Assembly (NCBI GenBank): GCA_902561355.1
Contig: CACEPG010000004.1
Location: 13,133-77,132 of the forward strand
Length of the DNA stretch: 64,000 bases
Direction of reading: 5' to 3'
From: an uncultured Alphaproteobacteria bacterium
GTDB taxonomy: Bacteria; Pseudomonadota; Alphaproteobacteria; HIMB59; GCA-002718135
This document shows positions 7,135 through 57,796 of this stretch, piece by piece. Position numbers and translations under genes: made by a program. The number at the start of each line of letters is the position of its first letter. Position 1 is the stretch's first letter. The notes below the pieces were generated by a model. The model made no database searches. It was not told where the DNA came from and saw nothing but the letters and a program-made list of their open reading frames with translations.

Positions 7135-8037
7135 TTAAGGAAGTATTGGTTCTCTTTTTCTCCTACTTCCATAACCATGAAAGATTACTGCAAAAGTTAT
7201 AACTACCCCGCCTATAATTACCGTAAGTGATGGTGTTTCATTAATTCCAAATATTGGAAGCCAAACCCAAAGCACTCCACCTACTACTTCCATTAATGAT
7301 AACAAAGCTAACTCTGCTGCAGGTAAATACTTTGCACCTAAACTATATAATATTAAACCTGAAGCTACAAATAAACCATGCAATAAACTCAGATATGAAT
7401 TTTTTACAGGCATAGTGTTAAAAGGCTCAAAAGAAAAACCTAAAAAAATAAATGAAAAAAAAGTACAAAATAAACCTGCAAGAACAACTGTGGTAAATTT
7501 TGGAGTTTCTGGTTTCCAACGAATAGTTACAGTATATAGAGCAAAGCCAGTTGCCGATACAAATCCTAGAAGTGCACCTAACACAGTACCTGTAATAGAG
7601 TCATTTATAATCATTATACAGACTCCTATAAAAGCAATAACCATAGAAATTAATGTTGAACGTCTAAGTATTTCATTAAGAAAAAAATAACCAAATATTG
7701 CTGCAATAAAAGGCATAGCAGCCAACATAAAAAGTGTCACCGCTGCGGAGGTTATAGTTATAGAATAAATGAATCCTGTAAAAGCTATGGCCAGAAAAAT
7801 CCCCCCCATAACTCCAGAAATTCCAATTTTTAAAAAATTCTTATAAAAATTTAATCCTTCAGTAATAAATAAATAAATTAAAAGAATTAATGCAATTGAA
7901 ATACCTCTATAAAATAAATATTGGAAAACATAAGAATTAGCTTCGTCCATATGACGCACAACAACCGCGCCAAAACTCCAAGACAAGCCAGCTAAAAAAA
8001 CTACAATAAAAGCATAAAAATACGAATTCTTAGTCAT
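7135..8037 (-). CDS. EamA/DMT-superfamily transporter
   Basis: 300 aa, about 10 TM helices with a duplicated EamA-like architecture. Confidence 0.75.
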   Translation of the reverse strand: MTKNSYFYAFIVVFLAGLSWSFGAVVVRHMDEANSYVFQYLFYRGISIALILLIYLFITEGLNFYKNFLKIGISGVMGGIFLAIAFTGFIYSITITSAAVTLFMLAAMPFIAAIFGYFFLNEILRRSTLISMVIAFIGVCIMIINDSITGTVLGALLGFVSATGFALYTVTIRWKPETPKFTTVVLAGLFCTFFSFIFLGFSFEPFNTMPVKNSYLSLLHGLFVASGLILYSLGAKYLPAAELALLSLMEVVGGVLWVWLPIFGINETPSLTVIIGGVVITFAVIFHGYGSRRKREPILP

Positions 8038-36842: not shown

Positions 36843-37751
36843 TTAGAGCCAAACTGGGTTTGTCCAGGCAAAATTCCCAGAATCATCAGCAATACTAACC
36901 CTAAACCACTCCGAAGGATAGTCTGTGAGATCAAATTCAGCGTTTGTAATATTTTTTCCATTCTGACTCATAGATTTGGCTCCTTGGCCAACTAAACACA
37001 CTTGGTTTGAAGGTGAACATTGGATATTTACTTTACTATTATTCATTTCAAACTCAAAAATTTCAATTCCAGTAGTTGAATAATATTGCCCATTTTTTAA
37101 AGCGTTTAAAATAGATATTTCGGATAAATTATCTGCTGCAACCATCACCCATCCACCTCCAAAATCTTGCATTCTAAAATGTGAGTCATCAGTAGCAGTT
37201 AAAAATATTTTATTATTTTCTTGTAATAAATAATCTGCTGTCGCAGTACCAAAACCACGTTGAGCTTCTAAATGGCAAGAATGATTATAAATTTCAACTC
37301 CATGAGCATGACTTACAGAAAGACATTCATCAAACGTTAGAGTGTACCATTCTGGATGAGCAATTGTAACAAACGCACCTGCTTCAATTGCTCTTTGAAC
37401 TAGATGAGGTGCTGTTTCTTTTTCATCAGCACATTTAAAATCTAATGGCAAACCATTTGCAACAATATGCCAAAGACCATCCCTAATATATTTTTTACCC
37501 TTACAATGAAGTTCTGCTGAGGGGATAGTGATAAAATCTTTTTGATTAAGATTTTTTGTTTCTAATACTGTTTCAGCTGCGAATTTACTCCCTTGCCATA
37601 AGTGATCTGAAAGACATGTAAAATCATAACCTATTTCTTTATACTTATTAATTACTTCTTGTGGATTTAAAGCTCCGTCTGAATGATTTGAATGTCCATG
37701 TAAATTACCTCTAAAGTATTGATGTGTATTTTTTGAAGGTAATAAATGCAT
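36843..37751 (-). CDS. PHP-domain metal-dependent phosphoesterase (CehA/McbA-like)
   Basis: 302 aa with the motifs GNLHGHSNHSDG, LSDH, IAHPEW and TDDSH (PHP His/Asp clusters). Confidence 0.75.
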   Translation of the reverse strand: MHLLPSKNTHQYFRGNLHGHSNHSDGALNPQEVINKYKEIGYDFTCLSDHLWQGSKFAAETVLETKNLNQKDFITIPSAELHCKGKKYIRDGLWHIVANGLPLDFKCADEKETAPHLVQRAIEAGAFVTIAHPEWYTLTFDECLSVSHAHGVEIYNHSCHLEAQRGFGTATADYLLQENNKIFLTATDDSHFRMQDFGGGWVMVAADNLSEISILNALKNGQYYSTTGIEIFEFEMNNSKVNIQCSPSNQVCLVGQGAKSMSQNGKNITNAEFDLTDYPSEWFRVSIADDSGNFAWTNPVWL

Positions 37752-40715: not shown

Positions 40716-41831
40716 TTAATTAATTGCCTTGCTTGGGTTTACAAACTCTAAACCCAAATCATCAGCTACAGCTTTATAAGTAACATTACCTAGACAAACA
40801 TTTAAGCCTGCTAAAAAATTAGCATCACTTGCTAAAGCATTTTTATATCCTTCTTTTGCCAACTTTAAAACAAAAGGTAAAGTAGCAGCATTTAAAGCTA
40901 GTGTTGAAGTCATTGGAACACCGCCCGGCATATTAGCAACACAGTAATGTACAACATCGTCAATTATATAAGTTGGATTAGCATGTGTAGTTGGTTTACT
41001 TGTCTCAACACACCCTCCTTGATCAATTGCTACATCTACAACAACAGATCCTCTTTTCATTTCTTTAATCATTTCTTTAGAAACTAACTTTGGAGCATTT
41101 GCTCCGGGTATTAACACCCCTCCTATTAATAAATCACATTGAGTAACATATTCTTCAAGTTTTATTTCATCAGATAGAAGCGTCGTAATATTCTCTCCAA
41201 ATTGAGATTTTAACTCATTTAATCTTGCCTCCGATTTATCAACTATAAAAACATTTGCTTGCATTCCTGAAGCAATAATTGCTGCATTCTCTCCGACAAC
41301 TCCTCCACCTAAAATCAAAACTGTTGCAGGATTAACTCCTGGGGCTCCTCCTAGCAAAAGACCTCTTCCGCCTAAAGGCTTTTCTAAAGAACGGGCGCCA
41401 GCTTGTATTGACATTCTCCCAGCAACAGCACTCATTGGGGCTAATAATGGTAAACGGTTATTTTCATCTGTTACTGTCTCATAAGCAATACAAATAGATT
41501 TCGAATTGATTAAACCTTTTGTTAAATCAGGTGCTGCTGAAAGATGAAGATAAGTAAAAAGTATTTGATTTTCTCTTAGCATCGATACTTCTTCATTTAA
41601 TGGTTCTTTAACTTTAACTATCATTTCTGCATCATTAAATACATCGCCAGCACTTGGAGCTATTTTCGCTCCTGTTTTTTCGTAGTCAGAATTTTCAAAT
41701 CCTGCATTAAATCCTGCATTATCTTGGATAATTACTTCATGACCATAATTTACAAGTTCTTGAACACTTGCAGGTGTTAAGCCGACACGTGATTCTTGGG
41801 CTTTAATTTCTGTTGGAACTCCAACTTTCAT
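40716..41831 (-). CDS. ald: Alanine dehydrogenase
   Basis: 371 aa. Reads MKVGVPTEIKAQESRVGLTPASV..., the NAD motif ILGGGVVGENAA, and VDVAIDQGGC. Confidence 0.92.
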   Translation of the reverse strand: MKVGVPTEIKAQESRVGLTPASVQELVNYGHEVIIQDNAGFNAGFENSDYEKTGAKIAPSAGDVFNDAEMIVKVKEPLNEEVSMLRENQILFTYLHLSAAPDLTKGLINSKSICIAYETVTDENNRLPLLAPMSAVAGRMSIQAGARSLEKPLGGRGLLLGGAPGVNPATVLILGGGVVGENAAIIASGMQANVFIVDKSEARLNELKSQFGENITTLLSDEIKLEEYVTQCDLLIGGVLIPGANAPKLVSKEMIKEMKRGSVVVDVAIDQGGCVETSKPTTHANPTYIIDDVVHYCVANMPGGVPMTSTLALNAATLPFVLKLAKEGYKNALASDANFLAGLNVCLGNVTYKAVADDLGLEFVNPSKAIN

Positions 41832-46114: not shown

Positions 46115-46510
46115 TTATTTTAGATCTCCCTTTGAGCGCATTTCTTTTCGTATATTAGTTGCAGAAATTTTATGAATTTTTTCACCTAAATCATGCTCAG
46201 TAAAAGTATAACCTACTCCTCTTCCATAAGAAATATCAATGATGTTCGGGACTTTTATAACAACGTATTCTTTTCCTTCTGAATATCCGTAAGGGGCTAA
46301 ACCTTCTATAATATTTTTTTTAACTTCTTCAAATTGAAAAGGATTGTCATTTTGTCCTGCTACACCAGCATCAACACCTCCTACATCTCGATACATAATA
46401 CATACCTGGCCTGTTTTTTGTAATGCCTTTTTAAAAAGAGCTGTATGACCATCATGCCATGGTTGCCAGCGTCCAAGCATTTCAACAGTTGGTTTTTTCC
46501 AATCAAACAT
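46115..46510 (-). CDS. Small HxGH-motif nucleotidyltransferase (cytidylyltransferase superfamily; NMNAT/NadM-like opening)
   Basis: 131 aa. GRWQPWHDGH corresponds to the (H/T)xGH motif, and ISATNIR to the ISSTxxR motif of this superfamily. Confidence 0.65.
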   Translation of the reverse strand: MFDWKKPTVEMLGRWQPWHDGHTALFKKALQKTGQVCIMYRDVGGVDAGVAGQNDNPFQFEEVKKNIIEGLAPYGYSEGKEYVVIKVPNIIDISYGRGVGYTFTEHDLGEKIHKISATNIRKEMRSKGDLK

Positions 46511-46997
46511 TTGTAATTTTCTCTGCTAGTTCTTTTATTTCTTTATCACTTAAAAAGGAAGTTATATGTATGTCTGGATTATTAGGATTTTCAAACATTT
46601 TATTTGTATCATCAAACTTTTTACTAGTAGATAATTGATCAGCATCAAAAGGCAGGTTATCTATATCTTTTAATTGATTTAATTTAGCTGAAACAACCCT
46701 ACCTTCTTTAACAGTATCCATCCAAATTAAACAATCTGCTGCAAATGATTCACGAACTTTGTTAGTAGGAGCAACAAAATCACATATAACATGTCGTCTT
46801 TGAGATTTTTCAAAATCAGCAAAAGCTTTCATTCTATTAGCTTGTCGAATTCTTCCTTCAACTTCAAAATCCCAGTCGTTTGAATATTTTCTAACAAAAT
46901 CAGCATTATACCACGCACAATTTTTTATATTCTTCTGGAGTCTTTCAGCTAACCAAGTTTTGCCTGATCCTGGAAGTCCACATACTAATATCTTCAT
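46503..46997 (-). CDS. P-loop kinase, adenylyl-sulfate (APS) kinase-like
   Basis: 164 aa, colinear with E. coli CysC as I recall it. GLPGSGKTW matches [35 protein letters not shown] matches [39 protein letters not shown] matches [29 protein letters not shown] matches FTGIDSVYEAPESAEIHL. The DGD motif is replaced by NAD. Confidence 0.55.
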   Translation of the reverse strand: [164 protein letters not shown]

Positions 46998-47114
46998 AGA
47001 ATTATTAATAAATATTAATTTTAAACAAGCAATAAATGTTTGTATTTAATAAAAAAAACATTAAGAAATTCTGGTAAAACAATACATTCAAGCTAAATAC
47101 TTTATAATATAAAT

Positions 47115-47909
47115 ATGTTTAATATAAACCCGTTTGCTGATCTTGCTCAATCTATACCCAGTATTCTTATGCAAACCTTTGTATTACTAATGTTTCTATT
47201 AATAGTTATAGGAACGATATTTGATATTATTCATAAAAAAAATGTAAAATATTTTTTTGAAAATGCTAAAAAAGCAAAAAAAAATGCCAAAATAGAATTA
47301 AGCACATCAAAAAAAACATCAGTTATTTTAAAAACTGTTACTAATGAAATTTTAACTACTTCAGAGCTAGGAAGAGGAAAAAGAAGAATTGCTCATTTGC
47401 TAGGAATGTACGGAACCATATTATTTTGGGTCACATCTATTATTATGATTTTTTTTTATTCAGAAAAAAATTCAATTACACCTTCTATATATCCAGTTCT
47501 TTGGCATCTTGGTGCAGTTATGACATGCTTGGGCGGATATTGGTTTTGGTTTTTTTTAAGAGTAGATGTATCTGCAGAAGCTTATCCTTGGTATAGAATT
47601 ATACAAGCTGATCTTTTTGTTTTATCTTTAGTCATAAGTGCAACTTTTGGAATAATCTGGTCTTTTCTTCAATCAGCTAACATCTTATTTTTTGATACGT
47701 TATTTTTTGTTTTATTTTGTCTATCCAATATAGTTTTATTTGGAGGAATATATTGGTCAAAATTTGCTCATATGTTTTACAAACCTGGAGCTGCTATTCA
47801 AAGAAATTTAGCAGAAGCAGATGGATCTAGAGATAATTTACCAGAACCTTCTAATAAACCTAAACAATTTGGTTTGGGAATAAAAAGAGAAGCTCCAAAG
47901 CATTATTAA
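47115..47909 (+). CDS. aprM: AprM-like membrane anchor for APS reductase
   Basis: 264 aa with five predicted TM helices and a hydrophilic C-terminal tail. It sits immediately upstream of aprBA, the arrangement described for AprM-type sulfur oxidisers. Confidence 0.6.
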   Translation: MFNINPFADLAQSIPSILMQTFVLLMFLLIVIGTIFDIIHKKNVKYFFENAKKAKKNAKIELSTSKKTSVILKTVTNEILTTSELGRGKRRIAHLLGMYGTILFWVTSIIMIFFYSEKNSITPSIYPVLWHLGAVMTCLGGYWFWFFLRVDVSAEAYPWYRIIQADLFVLSLVISATFGIIWSFLQSANILFFDTLFFVLFCLSNIVLFGGIYWSKFAHMFYKPGAAIQRNLAEADGSRDNLPEPSNKPKQFGLGIKREAPKHY

Positions 47910-47963
47910 TATGAATTTTAATAGAACTAAATTAATAAATATTGATGAAAGGAAATAATTAAA

Positions 47964-48434
47964 ATGTCTACTTTTGTATATATGACTAAATGTGATGGTT
48001 GCGGACATTGTGTAGACATATGCCCTTCAGACATAATGCATATAGATCCTGTTACTAGAAGAGCAGTTAATATTGAGCCGAACATGTGCTGGGAATGTTA
48101 TTCGTGTGTTAAAGCTTGTCCAAATGAAGCTATAGACGCTAGAGGGTATGCAGACTTTGCACCTATGGGGCACAGTGTGAGAGTTCTTCGTGAAGAAGAA
48201 AAAGGTACTATTTCTTGGAGAATAAAGTTTAGAAATGGCACAGAGAAAAATTTTGAATCTCCTATAACAACAAAACCTTGGGGTGAGCATATTCCAAAAT
48301 TAACAGAAGAAGCAGAGCCGGATCAAAAAGAAATCAATTCACAAATTTTATATTCTGAACCTGAAGGATTAAACACGAAAAAAGAATTACCCACTATAAG
48401 TAAAAGTTCTTTCAAAAAGGGAGTTTACTATTAA
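47964..48434 (+). CDS. aprB: Adenylylsulfate (APS) reductase beta subunit
   Basis: 156 aa. Two ferredoxin-type clusters (CDGCGHCVDICP and CWECYSCVKACP) followed by the AprB-type tail. Confidence 0.9.
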   Translation: MSTFVYMTKCDGCGHCVDICPSDIMHIDPVTRRAVNIEPNMCWECYSCVKACPNEAIDARGYADFAPMGHSVRVLREEEKGTISWRIKFRNGTEKNFESPITTKPWGEHIPKLTEEAEPDQKEINSQILYSEPEGLNTKKELPTISKSSFKKGVYY

Positions 48435-50293
48435 TGCCAAAAAATAAAACAGTTTACGAAAATTGTGATGTACTTGTTATTGGGGGAGGAATGGCAGGAA
48501 CTGGCGCAGCATTTGAAGCTAGACATTGGGGAAGGGACTTAAAAATAGTATGTGTTGAAAAAGCAAATATAGATCGGAGTGGTGCTGTTGCTCAAGGCCT
48601 ATATGCAATTAATTGTTATATGGGAATGCAATGGGATGAAAATCAACCTGAAGATCATGTTCGTTATGCACGTAATGATTTAATGGGACTTGTTCGTGAA
48701 GATTTAGGATACGATATGGCTCGTCATGTAGATTCTACTGTTCATATGTTTGATGAATGGGGTTTGCCAATGATGCGCAATGAAAAAACTGGAAGATATC
48801 AACGAGAAGGTAAATGGCAAATAATGATCCATGGAGAAAGTTACAAGCCTATCGTTGCCGAAGCAGCAAAAAAATCTGCTGATAAAATTTACAACAGAGT
48901 TATGATTACACACCTCTTAATGGATGACAGTAAAACAAACAGAGTTGGTGGGGCAGTTGGATTTAACATGCGAACTGGTGACTTTCATGTCTTTAAAGCA
49001 AAAACAGTTATTGTCGCTGCAGGCGGTGCATCTCATATATTTAAACCAAGGGCCGTTGGTGAAGGAATGGGCAGAACATGGTATGCGCCATGGAGCAATG
49101 GGTCGGCTTATGCCTTACCAATTGAAGTTGGTGCTAAAATGACACAAATGGAAAATCGTATAGTTTTATGTAGATTTAAAGATGGTTACGGACCTGTTGG
49201 AGCATATTTTTTACATCTTAAAACATATACACAAAATGCAAATGGTGAAAATTATGAAAAGAAATGGTACGACCAAACAAAAGAATTAGTAGGTGAGTAT
49301 ATAGATCATCAACCAACTCCAACTTGTTTACGAAATCATGCTTTTATTCAAGAAGTTATGGCTGGCAGAGGTCCAATACATATGGTCACTAAAGAAGCTT
49401 TCCAAGATCCGCATTTAGAAACAATTGGTTGGGAAAATTTTTTAGGAATGACAGTTGGTCAAGCAGTAGTTTGGGCTTCTCAAAATGTAGATCCAAAATA
49501 TCAAAATCCCGAACTAACTACTTCTGAACCCTACGTTATGGGATCACATGCTACTTGTTCAGGAGCTTGGGTAAGCGGACCAGAAGATCTATCTCCTCCA
49601 GAATATTTTTGGGGATATAATAGGATGACAACAGTGGAAGGGTTATTTGGAGCTGGTGATACGGTTGGTGGAAGTGCACATAAGTTTTCTTCAGGATCTT
49701 TCACAGAGGGTCGTTTAGCTGCTAAAGCTGCTATTAAATATATTCAAGATAAAAAAGCAGAGGACATAGAAGTTAATGATAGCCAATGTGAAAACTTTAG
49801 AGAAGTAATTTATAAACCTCTTGAAAATTATAAGGTTGGAAGAAATGAAATAACTGCTGGTACAGTTTCTCCAAGTTATATTCTTCCAATTCAAGGCTTA
49901 CAACGTCTTCAAAAAATTATGGACGAATATGTTGGAGGTATATCTTTTAATTATATGACAAATGAAAATACTCTTAAAAAAGGATTGGAATTGTTAGGTT
50001 GGTTACAAGAAGATTTAGAACATGTTGGAGCTGAAGATTATCATCAATTAATGCGTGCTTGGGAATTAAAACATCGGACCCTAACTTCTCAGTGTGTAAC
50101 TGAGCATACTTTGTTTAGAGAAGAAACACGTTGGCCTGGATATTATTACAGAGGCGATCATATGAAACTTGATGATGAAAATTGGCATTGTTTAACAGTA
50201 TCAAGACGTGATCCAGAAACAGGTAAATTTACTATGGAAAAAATGCCTGTGTATCACATAGTAGATGAAGAAAAGAAAAAAGAAGCTTCATAA
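48434..50293 (+). CDS. aprA: Adenylylsulfate (APS) reductase alpha subunit (flavoprotein)
   Basis: 619 aa. FAD motif VLVIGGGMAGTGAA and fumarate-reductase-family flavoprotein architecture. 1-nt overlap with aprB. Confidence 0.9.
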   Translation: MPKNKTVYENCDVLVIGGGMAGTGAAFEARHWGRDLKIVCVEKANIDRSGAVAQGLYAINCYMGMQWDENQPEDHVRYARNDLMGLVREDLGYDMARHVDSTVHMFDEWGLPMMRNEKTGRYQREGKWQIMIHGESYKPIVAEAAKKSADKIYNRVMITHLLMDDSKTNRVGGAVGFNMRTGDFHVFKAKTVIVAAGGASHIFKPRAVGEGMGRTWYAPWSNGSAYALPIEVGAKMTQMENRIVLCRFKDGYGPVGAYFLHLKTYTQNANGENYEKKWYDQTKELVGEYIDHQPTPTCLRNHAFIQEVMAGRGPIHMVTKEAFQDPHLETIGWENFLGMTVGQAVVWASQNVDPKYQNPELTTSEPYVMGSHATCSGAWVSGPEDLSPPEYFWGYNRMTTVEGLFGAGDTVGGSAHKFSSGSFTEGRLAAKAAIKYIQDKKAEDIEVNDSQCENFREVIYKPLENYKVGRNEITAGTVSPSYILPIQGLQRLQKIMDEYVGGISFNYMTNENTLKKGLELLGWLQEDLEHVGAEDYHQLMRAWELKHRTLTSQCVTEHTLFREETRWPGYYYRGDHMKLDDENWHCLTVSRRDPETGKFTMEKMPVYHIVDEEKKKEAS

Positions 50294-50307
50294 AAAATTA
50301 AAATAAA

Positions 50308-50658
50308 ATGAATCTGCAAGATAAAACAGATGAAGAAATAATAAAAATAGCTAATCCTCTATGGGATAACCTTGTAAAAAGTTCAAATAATAAAGACTAT
50401 AGTGGATTTACAAAAGATTTTTCTGCCGAAATGCTTTACGGCGCAAATGAAGTGGAAATTGGAAAGCAATGGGCAAATAATGATTTATTAGTTAATTTAT
50501 CAAATGATAAAATTTGTCTTGGTTGTTTAAGAAGAAATGAATACGTAACAGTTTTATATAAACAAAAAAGTACAAAACTTTCTGGAGATTTTTTAGGACG
50601 TCTAGTTATAGGATCAGAAGAAGGTATTATTAAAATATTTGGGGCAACTATATTTTAA
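50308..50658 (+). CDS. Hypothetical protein downstream of aprA
   Basis: 116 aa with no recognisable motif. Starts 14 nt after the aprA stop. Confidence 0.45.
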   Translation: MNLQDKTDEEIIKIANPLWDNLVKSSNNKDYSGFTKDFSAEMLYGANEVEIGKQWANNDLLVNLSNDKICLGCLRRNEYVTVLYKQKSTKLSGDFLGRLVIGSEEGIIKIFGATIF

Positions 50659-51451
50659 TTAAATTATTTGAAGCTACAAATTCTGGGTTTATCAAACTAT
50701 CTTTTGTGTTATAAAATATTTGTTTGTTGTTTAAGGTTAACAATGTCCCCCCTGCTTCTTTTAAAATTATATGACCAGCAGCAATATCCCATTCAGAAGT
50801 TGGCCCAAATCTAGGATAAAAGTCAGCATTGCCCTCAGCAATTTCACAAAATTTTAATGAACTACCTTTCTTTAGAAATTTTACTTTATCAAAATTTTCT
50901 GAAATCCAATTATTTACTTTGTCATTTGAGTGAGATCTACTACTTATTATTCGAGTCTCATTTAAATTTGTAAGTCTATTTACTTTTATAGATTGAGATT
51001 CATTCAAATTCTCAAAAATTTTGGAGCCAGTTAATTTAAATGCTCCATTATTTTTACTGGCATAATATAATTTTGATAGTGCTGGCGCATAAATTACACC
51101 AATAACTGGTTCATTTTTTTCAATTAAGGCAATATTTACAGTAAATTCATCATTTTTATTTATAAATTCTTTTGTCCCATCCAGAGGATCAACTAACCAA
51201 TATTGTGACCAAGTTTTTCTTGTATTCCAATCAACTAAAGACTCTTCAGTTATAATTTTAATTTTTTTATCAAGAGAATTAAGTTCTTGAATAATTAAGT
51301 TGTTTGCTGCAAGATCTGCTTCTGTTAAAGGTGAAGAATCCTTCTTAAAAATAACTTCATTATTATTATTATAAAATTGCATGATCTCATGCCCAGCTTT
51401 TATAGATATATTACAAAGATTGAGTAACAAATTATCATATTTATTTTTCAT
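50648..51451 (-). CDS. cysQ: 3'(2'),5'-bisphosphate nucleotidase (PAP phosphatase)
   Basis: 267 aa of the inositol-monophosphatase fold. Reads WLVDPLDGTKEF and SSLKFCEIAEGNADFYPRFGPTSEWDIAAG, typical of CysQ. Confidence 0.85.
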   Translation of the reverse strand: MKNKYDNLLLNLCNISIKAGHEIMQFYNNNNEVIFKKDSSPLTEADLAANNLIIQELNSLDKKIKIITEESLVDWNTRKTWSQYWLVDPLDGTKEFINKNDEFTVNIALIEKNEPVIGVIYAPALSKLYYASKNNGAFKLTGSKIFENLNESQSIKVNRLTNLNETRIISSRSHSNDKVNNWISENFDKVKFLKKGSSLKFCEIAEGNADFYPRFGPTSEWDIAAGHIILKEAGGTLLTLNNKQIFYNTKDSLINPEFVASNNLIKI

Positions 51452-51499: not shown

Positions 51500-52681
51500 A
51501 TGGTTTTAGATATTTTTAGTATTATTGATAAAAAAAAACTGGATGTTGTTGGTGAGTCTATTGAAAACGCACACGGTCTTCCAAATGAATGCTATTTAAA
51601 TGGAGCCTATACTGAAATAGAAAGAAAAAAAATTTTTGAAGATAAATGGGTAACTATAGGTGTTGCAAGTTCGGTTCCAAATCCTGGTGATACAAAACCA
51701 TTTGATCTGTTGGGAATACCATTAATTATAATAAGAGATAAAAATAATAAAGTTAGAGTATTCCATAATGTATGTAGTCACAGAGGATATAAATTAGTTC
51801 ATGAAGAATGCTCTCTAAAAAATATTTTACGTTGTCCTTATCATTCATGGTCTTACGATTTCGAAGGTAATCTAGTTGCTACACCACACATAGGGGGCAT
51901 TAATCAACATGATCATGAAATGTTTGATAAAACAAAAAGTGGTTTGAAAGAAGTTCGATCCACAGTTTGGTTAGATTTGATAATGGTGAATATTTCAAAT
52001 AATGAAATATCTTTTGATCAATACATAAAACCTTTAGAAGAAAGATGGTCAGCTTTTTGGACAAAGAAAGATCAAGAAATGATATGTCATCCTAGAGATT
52101 ATGGATATTTTTTATTAGAAGCTAAATGTAATTGGAAATTTGCAATTGAAAATTACTGTGAGAGCTACCATCTGCCTTTTGTTCATCCAGGTTTGAATGC
52201 TTATTCAAAAATTGATGACCATTATCATATTCAAGGACTGCCTAATAGATTTGCTGGTCAAGGAACTCTAGTTTATAATCCACGATTTAAAGATAACAAA
52301 CAATTTCCAAATTTTCCAGGTTGGTCAAAAGAAAAAGAAAAACATGCAGAATATGTTGCATTATTTCCAAATGTAATGCTTGGTATACATAAAGATCATT
52401 ATTATGCTTATTGGCTTGAACCAGTTAATCATCAATACACTAAAGAACATATGGAAATTTATTATGTTGGAGAAGAAGCAGCTTTATCTGAAAAATATAA
52501 ATCCCTTCGTGAACAAAATTTTAATCAATGGCATAGTATTCAATCTGAAGATCTGATGATTATAGAAGGTATGCAGGAAGGTCGTAATTCACCAGCTTAT
52601 AATGGTGGTAATTTTTCTCCTGTACTTGATAATCCTACACATCATTTTAATAAGTGGGTTGCAAAAAACTTAACTGAATAA
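51500..52681 (+). CDS. Rieske [2Fe-2S] non-heme-iron oxygenase, alpha subunit (choline/betaine-monooxygenase-like group)
   Basis: 393 aa. Rieske motif CSHRGYKLV-x16-CPYHSWSY and mononuclear iron motif NYCESYHLPFVHPG. Confidence 0.85.
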   Translation: MVLDIFSIIDKKKLDVVGESIENAHGLPNECYLNGAYTEIERKKIFEDKWVTIGVASSVPNPGDTKPFDLLGIPLIIIRDKNNKVRVFHNVCSHRGYKLVHEECSLKNILRCPYHSWSYDFEGNLVATPHIGGINQHDHEMFDKTKSGLKEVRSTVWLDLIMVNISNNEISFDQYIKPLEERWSAFWTKKDQEMICHPRDYGYFLLEAKCNWKFAIENYCESYHLPFVHPGLNAYSKIDDHYHIQGLPNRFAGQGTLVYNPRFKDNKQFPNFPGWSKEKEKHAEYVALFPNVMLGIHKDHYYAYWLEPVNHQYTKEHMEIYYVGEEAALSEKYKSLREQNFNQWHSIQSEDLMIIEGMQEGRNSPAYNGGNFSPVLDNPTHHFNKWVAKNLTE

Positions 52682-52695
52682 GTTGGGTAGTCAAT

Positions 52696-53316
52696 ATGAA
52701 AGATACTGATAATAAAATTCCAATTTACAAAATTAATTCTAAAGAACAAATTTTAGAATACTATACTAATTGGACCAATGATAATCAATATAACAAAGAT
52801 ATGATAGATTGGAATTACATAGCACCTAGCAATGCTGTAAAAATTTTTACCAATCATACAAATAATTTATCTCAAAAAATATTAGATGCAGGTTGTGGAA
52901 CAGGATTAGTTGGAAAAGAGTTAAAAAATTTAGGCTTCAAAAATATTATTGGGGTAGATTTTTCACAAGACATGTTAGACCTTGTACCAAATAATATTTA
53001 TGAAAAATTAGATCTAGTCGATTTAAATAATTCATTAGATTATAAAGATAATGAATTTGATAGTATTATTTGTGTAGGTACATTTACTTATGGTCATGTT
53101 AAAGCAAATGCTTTAGATGAATTTATTAGAATTACTAACTCTAATGGATTAATTTGTTTCAGTATAAATGAAGGAATTTATAAAAAAAATAACTTTGATA
53201 AAAAAATTCAAGAACTTGAAAATAATAAAAAATGGGAAATTTTAGAATTAGAAAAAACAAGTTACATTGTAAATAAAGATGTGGACGCTTGGTTTTGTAT
53301 TGCCAAAAAAAATTAA
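52696..53316 (+). CDS. Class I SAM-dependent methyltransferase
   Basis: 206 aa. Motif I ILDAGCGTGLVG and motif II FDSIICVG. Confidence 0.8.
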   Translation: MKDTDNKIPIYKINSKEQILEYYTNWTNDNQYNKDMIDWNYIAPSNAVKIFTNHTNNLSQKILDAGCGTGLVGKELKNLGFKNIIGVDFSQDMLDLVPNNIYEKLDLVDLNNSLDYKDNEFDSIICVGTFTYGHVKANALDEFIRITNSNGLICFSINEGIYKKNNFDKKIQELENNKKWEILELEKTSYIVNKDVDAWFCIAKKN

Positions 53317-56026: not shown

Positions 56027-57796
56027 TTATTGAATTATTGTATCTTTTGCGTGAATTCCAGCAACTTCAACAGGCGCTTTCATTGCATCTCTTCTAAATG
56101 GTTCGCCTAATTCTTGATTTAAAATTACCTCTATAAAAGTTGTGATACCATTCATTTGATCTTCACAAGATTTTTTTAAAGCTTCAGTTAATTCTGATTG
56201 GGTATTAACTTGTATACCTTTAAACCCACAGGCTTCAGCTATCTTAGCATAACTAAGTTTAGTATCTAATTCTGTTCCCACAAAGTTATTATCATACCAA
56301 AGAATAGTATTTCTTTTTTCAGCTCCCCATTGAAAATTTCTAAAAATAATCATAGAAATATTAGGCCAATCATCTCTGTTGCAGGATGTCATTTCGCTCA
56401 TACTTATTCCAAATGCTCCATCCCCAGCAAATCCAATAACTGGAGTATCTGGACATCCAATTTTAGCTCCTAAAACAGATGGAAAACCATACCCACAAGG
56501 ACCGAATAAGCCTGGGGCAAGATATTTTCTGCCTTTTTCAAAAGTTGGATAAGCATTACCTATTGCGCAGTTATTGCCTATGTCACTTGAGATAATAGCA
56601 TTGTCAGGTAATGCGGCTTGTATAGCTCTCCAAGCCATTCTTGGGGACATCCTATCAGGTTCACGGTTTCGAGAATCTTTATTCCAAGATGTGCCAGGAT
56701 CATCTTCTTCATGATCTAAACTTGTTAATGTTTGTAACCAAGAAGATTTAGTTTGATGAATTAAAGCTTTTCTATCTTCTCTACTATCATTTCCAGCATT
56801 AGAAGATAAATTTTCTAAAATCTGCATAGCAACAAGTTTAGCATCTCCACATATACCAACAGAAACTTTTTTTGTAAGACCTATTCTGTCTGAATTAATA
56901 TCAACCTGAATAATTTTTGCATTTTTGGGCCAATAATCAATACCGTAACCGGGTAAAGTTGAAAAAGGATTTAATCTTGTTCCTAATGCTAATACTACAT
57001 CAGCTTTAGAAATAATCTCCATTGCTGCTTTTGAGCCATTATATCCAAGAGGACCAACAGCTAAAGGATGCTTTCCTGGGAAACTATCATTGTGTTGATA
57101 TCCGCAAGCTACTGGAGCATCCAATTTTTCAGCCAAATTTTTGCATTCATCAATTGCATCAGCCAAAACAACACCTGCGCCTGATAAAATAGCTGGGAAT
57201 TTTGCATTGGATAAAAGATCTGCAGCCTTTTTAATTGCTTCAATTCCTCCAGATGGTCTTTCAAAATCGATTATAGCTGGTAATTCAATATCAATTTGCT
57301 GTGTCCAAAAATCTCTTGGTACATTTATTTGAGCTGGGGCTGATCCACGAATTGCTTTTAAAATTACACGATTTAATACTTCTGCTATCCGAGAAGCATC
57401 ACGAACTTCTTCTTGATAACAAACCATGTCTTTAAATAAGTTCATTTGTTCAACTTCTTGAAACCCTCCTTGCCCCATAGTTTTGTTTGCTGCTTGTGGT
57501 GTAACAAGCAACATAGGAGTATGATTCCAATAAGCAGTTTTAATTGGCGTAACAAAACCAGTAATTCCAGGTCCATTTTGGGCAATACACATAGCAATTT
57601 TACCGGTTGCACGTGTGTAGCCATCTGCCATTATTCCACCATTTGATTCATGAGCAACATCCCAAAAAGTTATACCTGCCTTTGGAAACAAATCAGAAAT
57701 AGGCATAAATGCAGAACCTATGATACCAAAAGAGTGCTGTATTCCATGCTTTTGCAGCACTTTTACAAAAGCCTCTTCTGTAGTCATTTTTGCCAT
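56027..57796 (-). CDS. xsc: Sulfoacetaldehyde acetyltransferase (ThDP-dependent)
   Basis: 589 aa. The N-terminus MAKMTTEEAFVKVLQKHGIQHSFGIIGSAFMPISDLFPKAGITFWDVAHE is characteristic of Xsc. ThDP motif GDGAFGISMSEM...N. Confidence 0.85.
   Translation of the reverse strand: MAKMTTEEAFVKVLQKHGIQHSFGIIGSAFMPISDLFPKAGITFWDVAHESNGGIMADGYTRATGKIAMCIAQNGPGITGFVTPIKTAYWNHTPMLLVTPQAANKTMGQGGFQEVEQMNLFKDMVCYQEEVRDASRIAEVLNRVILKAIRGSAPAQINVPRDFWTQQIDIELPAIIDFERPSGGIEAIKKAADLLSNAKFPAILSGAGVVLADAIDECKNLAEKLDAPVACGYQHNDSFPGKHPLAVGPLGYNGSKAAMEIISKADVVLALGTRLNPFSTLPGYGIDYWPKNAKIIQVDINSDRIGLTKKVSVGICGDAKLVAMQILENLSSNAGNDSREDRKALIHQTKSSWLQTLTSLDHEEDDPGTSWNKDSRNREPDRMSPRMAWRAIQAALPDNAIISSDIGNNCAIGNAYPTFEKGRKYLAPGLFGPCGYGFPSVLGAKIGCPDTPVIGFAGDGAFGISMSEMTSCNRDDWPNISMIIFRNFQWGAEKRNTILWYDNNFVGTELDTKLSYAKIAEACGFKGIQVNTQSELTEALKKSCEDQMNGITTFIEVILNQELGEPFRRDAMKAPVEVAGIHAKDTIIQ

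Follow-up and report, generated by a model that had tools for sequence, protein, structure and literature searches.

Genes at the apr locus

In a 64,000-nt stretch of DNA from an uncultured alphaproteobacterium (contig CACEPG010000004.1; here called the window, always at its full length), a minimal HxGH nucleotidyltransferase (NTase) and a P-loop kinase are encoded back-to-back with aprM-aprBA, the genes for the reductase of adenosine 5'-phosphosulfate (APS) and for its membrane partner, inside a taurine/sulfonate island. The two proteins probably work together as a module for activating sulfate in a non-canonical way, which, at this locus, likely completes the oxidation of sulfite. The window has a G+C content of 29.6%, and it is most closely related to SAR11-type single-cell genomes and to a 'MarineAlpha5' metagenome-assembled genome (MAG). 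A previous sequence-only reading had described a set of seven genes within 5.3 kb, at 46115-51451. All seven open reading frames (ORFs) were confirmed at their coordinates, with AprB, AprA and CysQ scoring above curated thresholds, and the same gene order was found again in at least 8 independent assemblies of the lineage (L090-L097; L-numbers denote compared loci, P-numbers representative proteins of the NTase family). The features are the following:

46115-46510 (-): the NTase, a minimal HxGH adenylyltransferase, 131 aa; overlaps the kinase gene by 8 nt, translationally coupled
46503-46997 (-): divergent CysC-like P-loop kinase from the APS-kinase lineage, 164 aa; PF01583 30 bits, fold and residues
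47115-47909 (+): AprM-like integral membrane protein, 264 aa; upstream of aprBA, hydrophobic spans
47964-48434 (+): AprB, APS reductase beta subunit; TIGR02060 189 bits (cut-off 136), PF12139 110 bits
48434-50293 (+): AprA, APS reductase alpha (flavin adenine dinucleotide, FAD) subunit; TIGR02061 1010 bits (cut-off 642)
50308-50658 (+): conserved 116-aa ORF (orf116) with no family match; last gene of the SAR11-type apr operon
50648-51451 (-): CysQ, 3'(2'),5'-bisphosphate nucleotidase, i.e. phosphatase of 3'-phosphoadenosine 5'-phosphate (PAP); TIGR01331 284.9 bits (cut-off 228.8)
56027-57796 (-): Xsc, sulfoacetaldehyde acetyltransferase; TIGR03457 952 bits (cut-off 676)
40716-41831 (-): alanine dehydrogenase; TIGR00518 487 bits
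41831-43171 (-): omega-aminotransferase; NF052567 585 bits
43306-44217 (+): phosphotransacylase; NF006045 287 bits

Xsc had been named as the source of sulfite, and indeed not only its gene but also the rest of the taurine pathway lies in the window. The cluster had further been said to lack a canonical ATP sulfurylase, which holds for the window as a whole: tblastn gave no match to CysD, CysN or CysC in any part of the 64 kb (CysD and CysN queries from E. coli), and a motif search found no Sat signature (QxRNPxHxxH, GRDHAG). The oxidative role proposed for AprBA and the lack of sulfate activation in SAR11 agree with the literature, according to which SAR11 AprBA removes sulfite and most SAR11 are without Sat (PMC10356861; PMC12636525); in the words of these reports, 'most SAR11 lack ATP sulfurylase' (PMC10356861) and the sulfate pathways of SAR11 are 'incomplete', with aprAB belonging to the core genes and subject to strong purifying selection (PMC12636525). 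The presence of aprMBA and the lack of Sat in SAR11 are thus already known; our literature search found no description of the kinase-NTase pair or of a cytidylyltransferase-like sulfate adenylyltransferase.

The kinase and the nucleotidyltransferase form one module

From its sequence and its structural model, the kinase clearly belongs to the APS-kinase lineage, but it is not a canonical CysC; phosphorylation of APS is predicted. It matches Pfam PF01583 (APS_kinase) with 30.3 bits (gathering score 21.1), and about 40 of the top 50 Foldseek matches of its AlphaFold2 (AF2) model (mean predicted local distance difference test score, pLDDT, 79.5) in the Protein Data Bank (PDB) are APS kinases, with template modelling (TM) scores of 0.66-0.74; neither dephospho-coenzyme A (CoA) kinases nor nicotinamide riboside kinases occur among these 50. 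The P-loop, the DGD motif's catalytic Asp and the APS-clamping Arg and Phe residues (D-x-x-R, LGF, xDR) are all in place. When the kinase is aligned with E. coli CysC and with the CysC domain of P0378, the residues G7, L8, G12, K13, D33, R36, F44, R49 and P77 are invariant; by comparison with the PAPSS1 and Penicillium structures, D33 is presumably the catalytic Asp, and R36, F44, R49 and P77 presumably clamp the adenine and the phosphosulfate of APS. Across the kinase family the first position of DGD is N or D, and D33 is the second Asp. Where canonical APS kinases have their mobile lid, the family keeps only a remnant (...GRFxDTN...P), and the window kinase carries a 27-residue insert (residues ~101-127; window 46695-46775) that is unrelated to the lid and modelled with low confidence. 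Ia Pelagibacteraceae, SAR86, phage and fused forms lack this insert, which is lineage-specific; in close relatives V102, K105, L106, L109, I112, L115, P116, F117, L122 and S125 are invariant. CysC scores follow a gradient from the SAR11 and SAR86 forms (21-31 bits) over the fused forms (45-61 bits) to the canonical enzymes, and the fused forms carry a near-canonical 'DLGFSxxDR'. The earlier description of this protein as CysC-like is borne out by fold, APS-clamping residues and Pfam score; the curated CysC thresholds are not reached, and the canonical lid is lacking.

Members of the NTase family share the motifs GRxQPxHxGH, NP, PNI, YGRxVGY and ISATxIR. In the window protein, WHDGH and ISATNIR, invariant in the family, place it in the HxGH nucleotidyltransferase superfamily (PF01467); its score against Pfam CTP_transf_like is 17.1 bits, below the threshold of 21, which the family member P0374 passes with 28 bits. 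A profile search of the PDB matched archaeal nicotinamide mononucleotide (NMN) adenylyltransferase (NMNAT; 3e-12) and NadM (9e-11), the alignment covering only positions 9-81, i.e. the ATP-binding N-terminal part, and the curated NMNAT models are far from being reached (NF002243, 27 bits vs 127; TIGR01527, 19 vs 181). The AF2 model (pLDDT 85.7) gave modest Foldseek matches to the cores of phosphopantetheine adenylyltransferase (PPAT) and NMNAT (TM 0.45-0.68), and the names given to the protein in databases conflict (NMNAT, PPAT, cytidyltransferase, hypothetical). Homology therefore does not identify the second substrate. A reading of the protein as a miniature Sat by motif, with YGRDVGY as the GRDHAG loop of Sat, was dropped, for neither the PDB profile search nor Foldseek gave a link to Sat; genomic context is the ground for the functional claim. 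From its partners and this context, we regard the NTase as a candidate non-canonical sulfate adenylyltransferase, i.e. an analogue of ATP sulfurylase.

The two genes make up one two-gene module, in which the NTase is the obligate partner of the kinase. Each protein matches one half of a single phage family (PHROG 10255), and isolated Xylella, Xanthomonas, Stenotrophomonas and Clavibacter phages encode both in a single ORF of ~245 aa. When 1.8 billion representative proteins were searched exhaustively, 1,036 clusters of the NTase family came up; of the 52 family representatives in which the NTase domain is complete, 21 have a kinase domain fused to it. Of 80 loci in species-representative genomes, nearly all have a kinase gene directly upstream of the NTase, as have 72 of the best 80 viral loci (L098-L177). 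The sequence-only reading had treated the NTase as a bystander; instead, it is coupled or fused to the kinase, and the two are adjacent in nearly all carriers.

Bacterial carriers of the pair are Pelagibacteraceae, SAR86, a Synechococcus MAG and soil alphaproteobacteria, and the NTase is present on at least 558 viral contigs of IMG/VR. The viral flanking genes (Gp23, UvsX, gp41-type helicase, ThyX) identify the carriers as T4-like myoviruses, and in marine viruses of this type the pair is very common. The best viral NTases are up to 71% identical to that of the window, compared to ~57% for the main Pelagibacteraceae group, suggesting that genes have moved between phages and hosts of the SAR11 type. 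Phage neighbours of the pair are replication and nucleotide genes, and the phage contexts (Sano, DLP_6 and 30 viral loci examined) are neutral with regard to a sulfur role. No NAD- or CoA-related family was found among 89 bacterial and 150 viral flanking genes. The contexts of the divergent fusions P0329, P0369 and P0263 are uninformative, the metagenomic contigs being short. In P0329 (L006, 785-1972) a DUF4118 membrane domain precedes kinase and NTase at the N-terminus, so that membrane-anchored versions exist.

Two further observations concern the surroundings of the pair. In MarineAlpha5-type contigs and two SAR86 loci, but not in the window, an E. coli-type ArsC gene (PF03960) directly follows the NTase (L090-L093, 10413-10766 (+); L021, 2167-2499 (-); L025, 10385-10717 (-)). 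ATP sulfurylases act on arsenate, and the adjacency may thus not be a matter of chance. In about 40 Pelagibacteraceae loci, a Rieske oxygenase and a methyltransferase directly precede the kinase-NTase pair, while in the window the same two genes (51500-53316 (+)) adjoin cysQ. By this order, the apr-cysQ block looks as if it had either entered a neighbourhood that is otherwise conserved or been lost from it.

Sulfur-gene contexts of the nucleotidyltransferase

All partners of the NTase that are informative either make APS or use it. In P0378, found on 4 independent contigs, the NTase is fused to a bona fide CysC (TIGR00455, 234 bits vs a cut-off of 139). In three Pelagibacteraceae single-cell genomes (L067, L068, L070), the order is NTase, aprM, aprB, aprA, orf116 and TauE, with xsc nearby. 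No kinase was detectable in these three even at E<=1, i.e. the NTase stands alone, and NTases of this kinase-less type keep all motifs of the family. In the operon it takes the first position, which is that of sat in classical sat-aprMBA operons. One relative has the NTase followed by TauE without apr. As regards the other side, a TenA/PQQC-family protein (also matching Haem_oxygenas_2; L068, 9303-9968) always directly precedes the kinase-less NTase in L067, L068, L070 and L073, and is itself preceded by a major facilitator superfamily (MFS) transporter in all four. Three different arrangements, with outer flanks that differ as well, keep the NTase within one gene of apr.

A different context is found in L080 (PBCY01000027.1, 3267-8404; MAG Pelagibacteraceae SP38, 27% G+C), where CbiX, a tetrapyrrole methylase, CysI, CysH, the kinase and the NTase are encoded in this order in one co-directional run. 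Its sulfite reductase matches E. coli CysI with E = 3e-111, and its CysH carries CC...CxxC pairs, which we take to mark the Fe-S, APS-dependent type. No CysDN (tblastn) and no Sat (motifs) were found in the 18-kb locus. With cysI and cysH present and neither CysDN nor Sat, the conversion of sulfate to APS is the indispensable missing step, for which the NTase is the sole candidate in the locus. Marine and LD12 SAR11 have been reported to be without assimilatory sulfate reduction (PMC6018831); L080 may come from a SAR11-type lineage that possesses it, or be a mis-binned contig. The 279-nt 'gap' between cysH and the kinase gene of L080 encodes a short hydrophobic protein (~7285-7550 (+); ...SITWRVVASADTFLIAWFITG...YYFHERGW...). 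This protein may resemble DUF2061, a domain that occurs fused to or next to APS kinases.

Sulfur genes adjoin the pair in further loci as well. In the closest relatives of the window (L009-L012), the tightly spaced string xsc, transporter, cysQ, kinase and NTase (gaps of 8, 5 and 13 nt, then an 8-nt overlap) has no apr within 10 kb. In two soil alphaproteobacteria, a kinase-NTase fusion heads an operon with genes for glycosyltransferases of families GT2 and GT4 and a sulfotransferase (L085), or is divergent from a tetratricopeptide repeat (TPR)-sulfotransferase gene (L086). The pair of L018 is followed by polysaccharide genes and a PAPS_reduct-family gene, and in one SAR86 genome a PF03601 transporter gene lies directly upstream of the pair.

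For the apr operon of the window itself, an assignment following PMC2211403 yields AprBA of lineage I with AprM: both equivalog thresholds are passed, a multi-span gene lies upstream and no qmo is found in the cluster. No curated model exists for the AprM-like protein, which matches the QmoC membrane domain weakly (25 bits), has 4-5 hydrophobic spans and is 64-70% identical to counterparts adjoining aprBA in SAR11 single-cell genomes. As aprM always precedes lineage-I aprBA (PMC2211403), the protein is presumed to be the quinone-linked anchor of AprBA. In SAR11-type loci aprA is always followed by orf116 (62-65% identity), whatever the arrangement of apr; this protein, which has a CxxC pair (C70, C73) and no match in Pfam, NCBIfam, PHROG or the PDB, looks as if it were a fourth part of the apr operon in SAR11, and an uncharacterised one. 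CysQ had been considered to be kept next to apr, a view that our comparison does not sustain: beside apr, its gene is missing or truncated in the close relatives L095 and L096, and in L009-L012 it travels with the pair after xsc.

As for the remainder of the window, a scan against Rfam gave no matches, and a scan for promoters and terminators gave only the background level of AT-rich DNA. Two close relatives encode a 509-aa sulfatase (PF00884) between a MetE-like gene and a peptide-binding protein (L094, 17708-19237; L097, 8347-9876), where the window has a 302-aa ORF (36843-37751).

Proposed sulfate activation and competing explanations

The data show what the genes are, that the two of the pair are coupled and elsewhere fused, that the kinase has the fold and residues of an APS kinase, and which genes surround the pair. 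From this we infer the substrate of the NTase and, for the source organism, the direction of flux and the use of 3'-phosphoadenosine 5'-phosphosulfate (PAPS) as follows. The NTase would catalyse ATP + sulfate <-> APS + pyrophosphate (PPi), the job of Sat or CysDN, and the kinase, as a lid-less APS-kinase derivative, would turn APS and ATP into PAPS. In the window, the aminotransferase would convert taurine to sulfoacetaldehyde, with alanine dehydrogenase recycling the amino acceptor, and Xsc would free sulfite from sulfoacetaldehyde. AprBA would then form APS from sulfite and AMP while AprM hands the electrons to the membrane, and the NTase, working in the direction of pyrophosphorolysis, would release ATP and sulfate from APS and PPi. 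This step would complete the classical indirect oxidation of sulfite, the last enzyme of which is thought to be missing in SAR11. Part of the APS may be diverted to PAPS by the kinase, with CysQ clearing the resulting PAP. Beyond this locus, we are inclined to see in the ~120-aa HxGH family a third, so far unrecognised class of sulfate adenylyltransferase, which would be the 'missing Sat' of SAR11 sulfite oxidation, would form a miniature PAPS synthase with the lid-less kinase, might allow sulfate assimilation in a few SAR11-type genomes (L080) and would rank among the more widespread auxiliary sulfur modules of marine T4-like phages.

Several observations weigh against this interpretation. 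Sat is absent both from the PDB profile matches of the NTase at E<=10 and from its top 50 Foldseek matches, its nearest relatives being NMNAT and PPAT. The kinase stays far below the NCBIfam CysC models (23-31 bits at cut-offs of 127-244; TIGR00455, 24.4 vs 138.7), the canonical mobile lid (DPKGLYKKARAG...FTGID) is short of about 20 residues family-wide, and the DGD motif is changed to NAD (residues 31-33, YNADFVR), with Asn for the first Asp, a substitution that had been pointed out correctly before. Most carriers have no sulfur gene nearby (~40 Pelagibacteraceae loci, most SAR86 and all 80 of the 80 viral loci). Among the sulfur contexts, L080 is a single MAG contig, the sulfotransferase match of L085 is borderline (27.5 bits vs 27), and the apr and xsc contexts of SAR11 are phylogenetically correlated and thus not fully independent. 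The search for canonical sat and cysDN covered the window and the 18-kb locus of L080.

According to the sequence-only reading, AprBA is the sole source of APS, the kinase makes PAPS for sulfotransferases, CysQ recycles the PAP and the NTase is unrelated. The APS-kinase-like nature of the kinase, the clustering of apr, kinase and cysQ in the window and in L090-L094, and a window free of canonical Sat or CysDN all suit this model, but we consider it unlikely. The coupling or fusion of the NTase to the kinase is found everywhere, and the pair mostly occurs without apr nearby, so that its PAPS supply cannot generally depend on AprBA. In L067, L068 and L070 it is the NTase alone, not the kinase, that accompanies aprMBA. 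Moreover, cysQ is dispensable beside apr, and tblastn with two sulfotransferases found none in the window or the SAR11-type loci, which is a weak probe because sulfotransferases are diverse. PAPS may be supplied 'backwards' from APS made by AprBA, but the genes can be explained without this: the contexts of the NTase point to the missing sulfate adenylyltransferase, which makes such a route unnecessary.

We think it quite improbable that the pair is a phage-derived mobile module of unrelated or unknown role in nucleotide metabolism, which came to lie beside apr by insertion into a variable island. The abundance of viral copies, the best of them closer to the window NTase than the main Pelagibacteraceae group, the replication and nucleotide genes around them and the mostly uninformative bacterial contexts would all fit. 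Against it stand the three apr arrangements with different outer flanks and the independent sulfur contexts in unrelated lineages (L080, L085, L086, L018, P0378). Phage carriage is also compatible with a sulfur role, since viral cysC and cysH are well-documented auxiliary genes, and viral 'cysC' genes, which may belong to this kinase family, are reported to be transcribed (PMC10914622).

Two explanations from outside sulfur metabolism appear very improbable to us. In the first, the pair would be a compact CoA synthase, with the NTase as PPAT and the kinase phosphorylating the 3'-OH of dephospho-CoA, the same chemistry as that of an APS kinase. PPATs are the top Foldseek matches of the NTase, several JGI records name it so, and the succession of PPAT and 3'-kinase parallels the logic of a PAPS synthase; CysQ, too, would have a place here, as it also clears the PAP released by phosphopantetheinyl transfer. 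These structural matches, however, reach a TM of only ~0.45 at E ~1e-3 and the PPAT sequence matches are insignificant (E 0.01-2), both phosphosulfate-binding Arg residues of the kinase are invariant, the partner in P0378 is a true CysC, and contexts with apr, cysH/cysI, TauE, xsc and sulfotransferases are unrelated to CoA. In the second, a NadR-like salvage of NAD that would be useful to phages, the kinase would act on nicotinamide riboside and the NTase would be an NMNAT, as one JGI record, the profile matches to archaeal NMNAT and NadM, the best NCBIfam matches and the abundance of the pair in T4-like phages might suggest; yet the likeness is limited to the ATP-binding N-terminal 70-80 residues with scores far below the cut-offs, the NMN-binding C-terminal part is lacking (120-130 aa vs 170-180 aa), the kinase finds APS kinases, with nicotinamide riboside kinases missing from its top 50 matches, no PnuC, NadV or Nudix neighbours were found, and the CysC fusion and the sulfur operons would be left unexplained.

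The proposed sulfate-activating module can be compared with several known systems. With PAPS synthases and Sat-CysC fusions (human PAPSS1/2, bacterial and fungal Sat-APS-kinase, CysN-CysC) it would share the coupling of an APS-making adenylyltransferase to an APS-kinase fold, and it shares the occurrence of fused and split forms beside sulfotransferases, cysH and cysQ. It differs in the adenylyltransferase of only ~105-130 aa, with an HxGH/ISxTxxR core and no detectable likeness to Sat (PF01747) or CysD, in the usual order of kinase before NTase, and in a kinase that is lid-less and below CysC thresholds. Sulfur oxidisers such as Allochromatium vinosum have a sat-aprMBA operon. Like that system (pathway in PMC10356861), the SAR11-type loci have lineage I AprM and AprBA with an adjacent gene for the APS/sulfate step, the NTase of L067, L068 and L070 lying exactly in the sat position with the sulfite exporter TauE and xsc nearby. 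There is, however, no Sat homologue, the window NTase with its kinase is divergent from aprM and not co-transcribed with it, and sulfite would come from organosulfonates rather than from sulfur lithotrophy.

In the Bacillus subtilis-type operon, cysH, (cysP), sat, cysC and sirohaem genes follow each other. L080 resembles it in its co-directional genes for sirohaem, sulfite reductase, Fe-S-type CysH, a CysC-like kinase and an adenylyltransferase, but has the small NTase in place of Sat and a lid-less kinase in place of CysC, and this on one MAG contig, not in the window. The archaeal, NadM-type NMNATs, finally, are the closest relatives of the NTase in sequence, with GRxQPxHxGH, (D/N)PF, ISxTxxR and a Rossmann-like core in common; in contrast to them, the NTase is 40-50 residues shorter, has a PNI...YGRxVGY segment replacing the NMN-binding region, always stays below the curated thresholds for NMNAT and lacks a genomic context related to NAD.

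SAR11, the ocean's most abundant heterotroph, is known for its odd sulfur metabolism: it needs reduced sulfur and carries AprBA. If our interpretation is true, the pair is a non-orthologous miniature PAPS synthase or ATP sulfurylase, and an ATP sulfurylase of 120 residues would represent a new enzyme family for a central reaction. Pathway-completeness calls in sulfur cycling that are based on sat/cysDN in KEGG or Pfam would be systematically wrong for SAR11, SAR86 and many viruses, and what is called 'cysC' among viral auxiliary genes would encode two-enzyme PAPS synthases. SAR11 itself would gain ATP by substrate-level phosphorylation from organosulfonate-derived sulfite, releasing sulfate.

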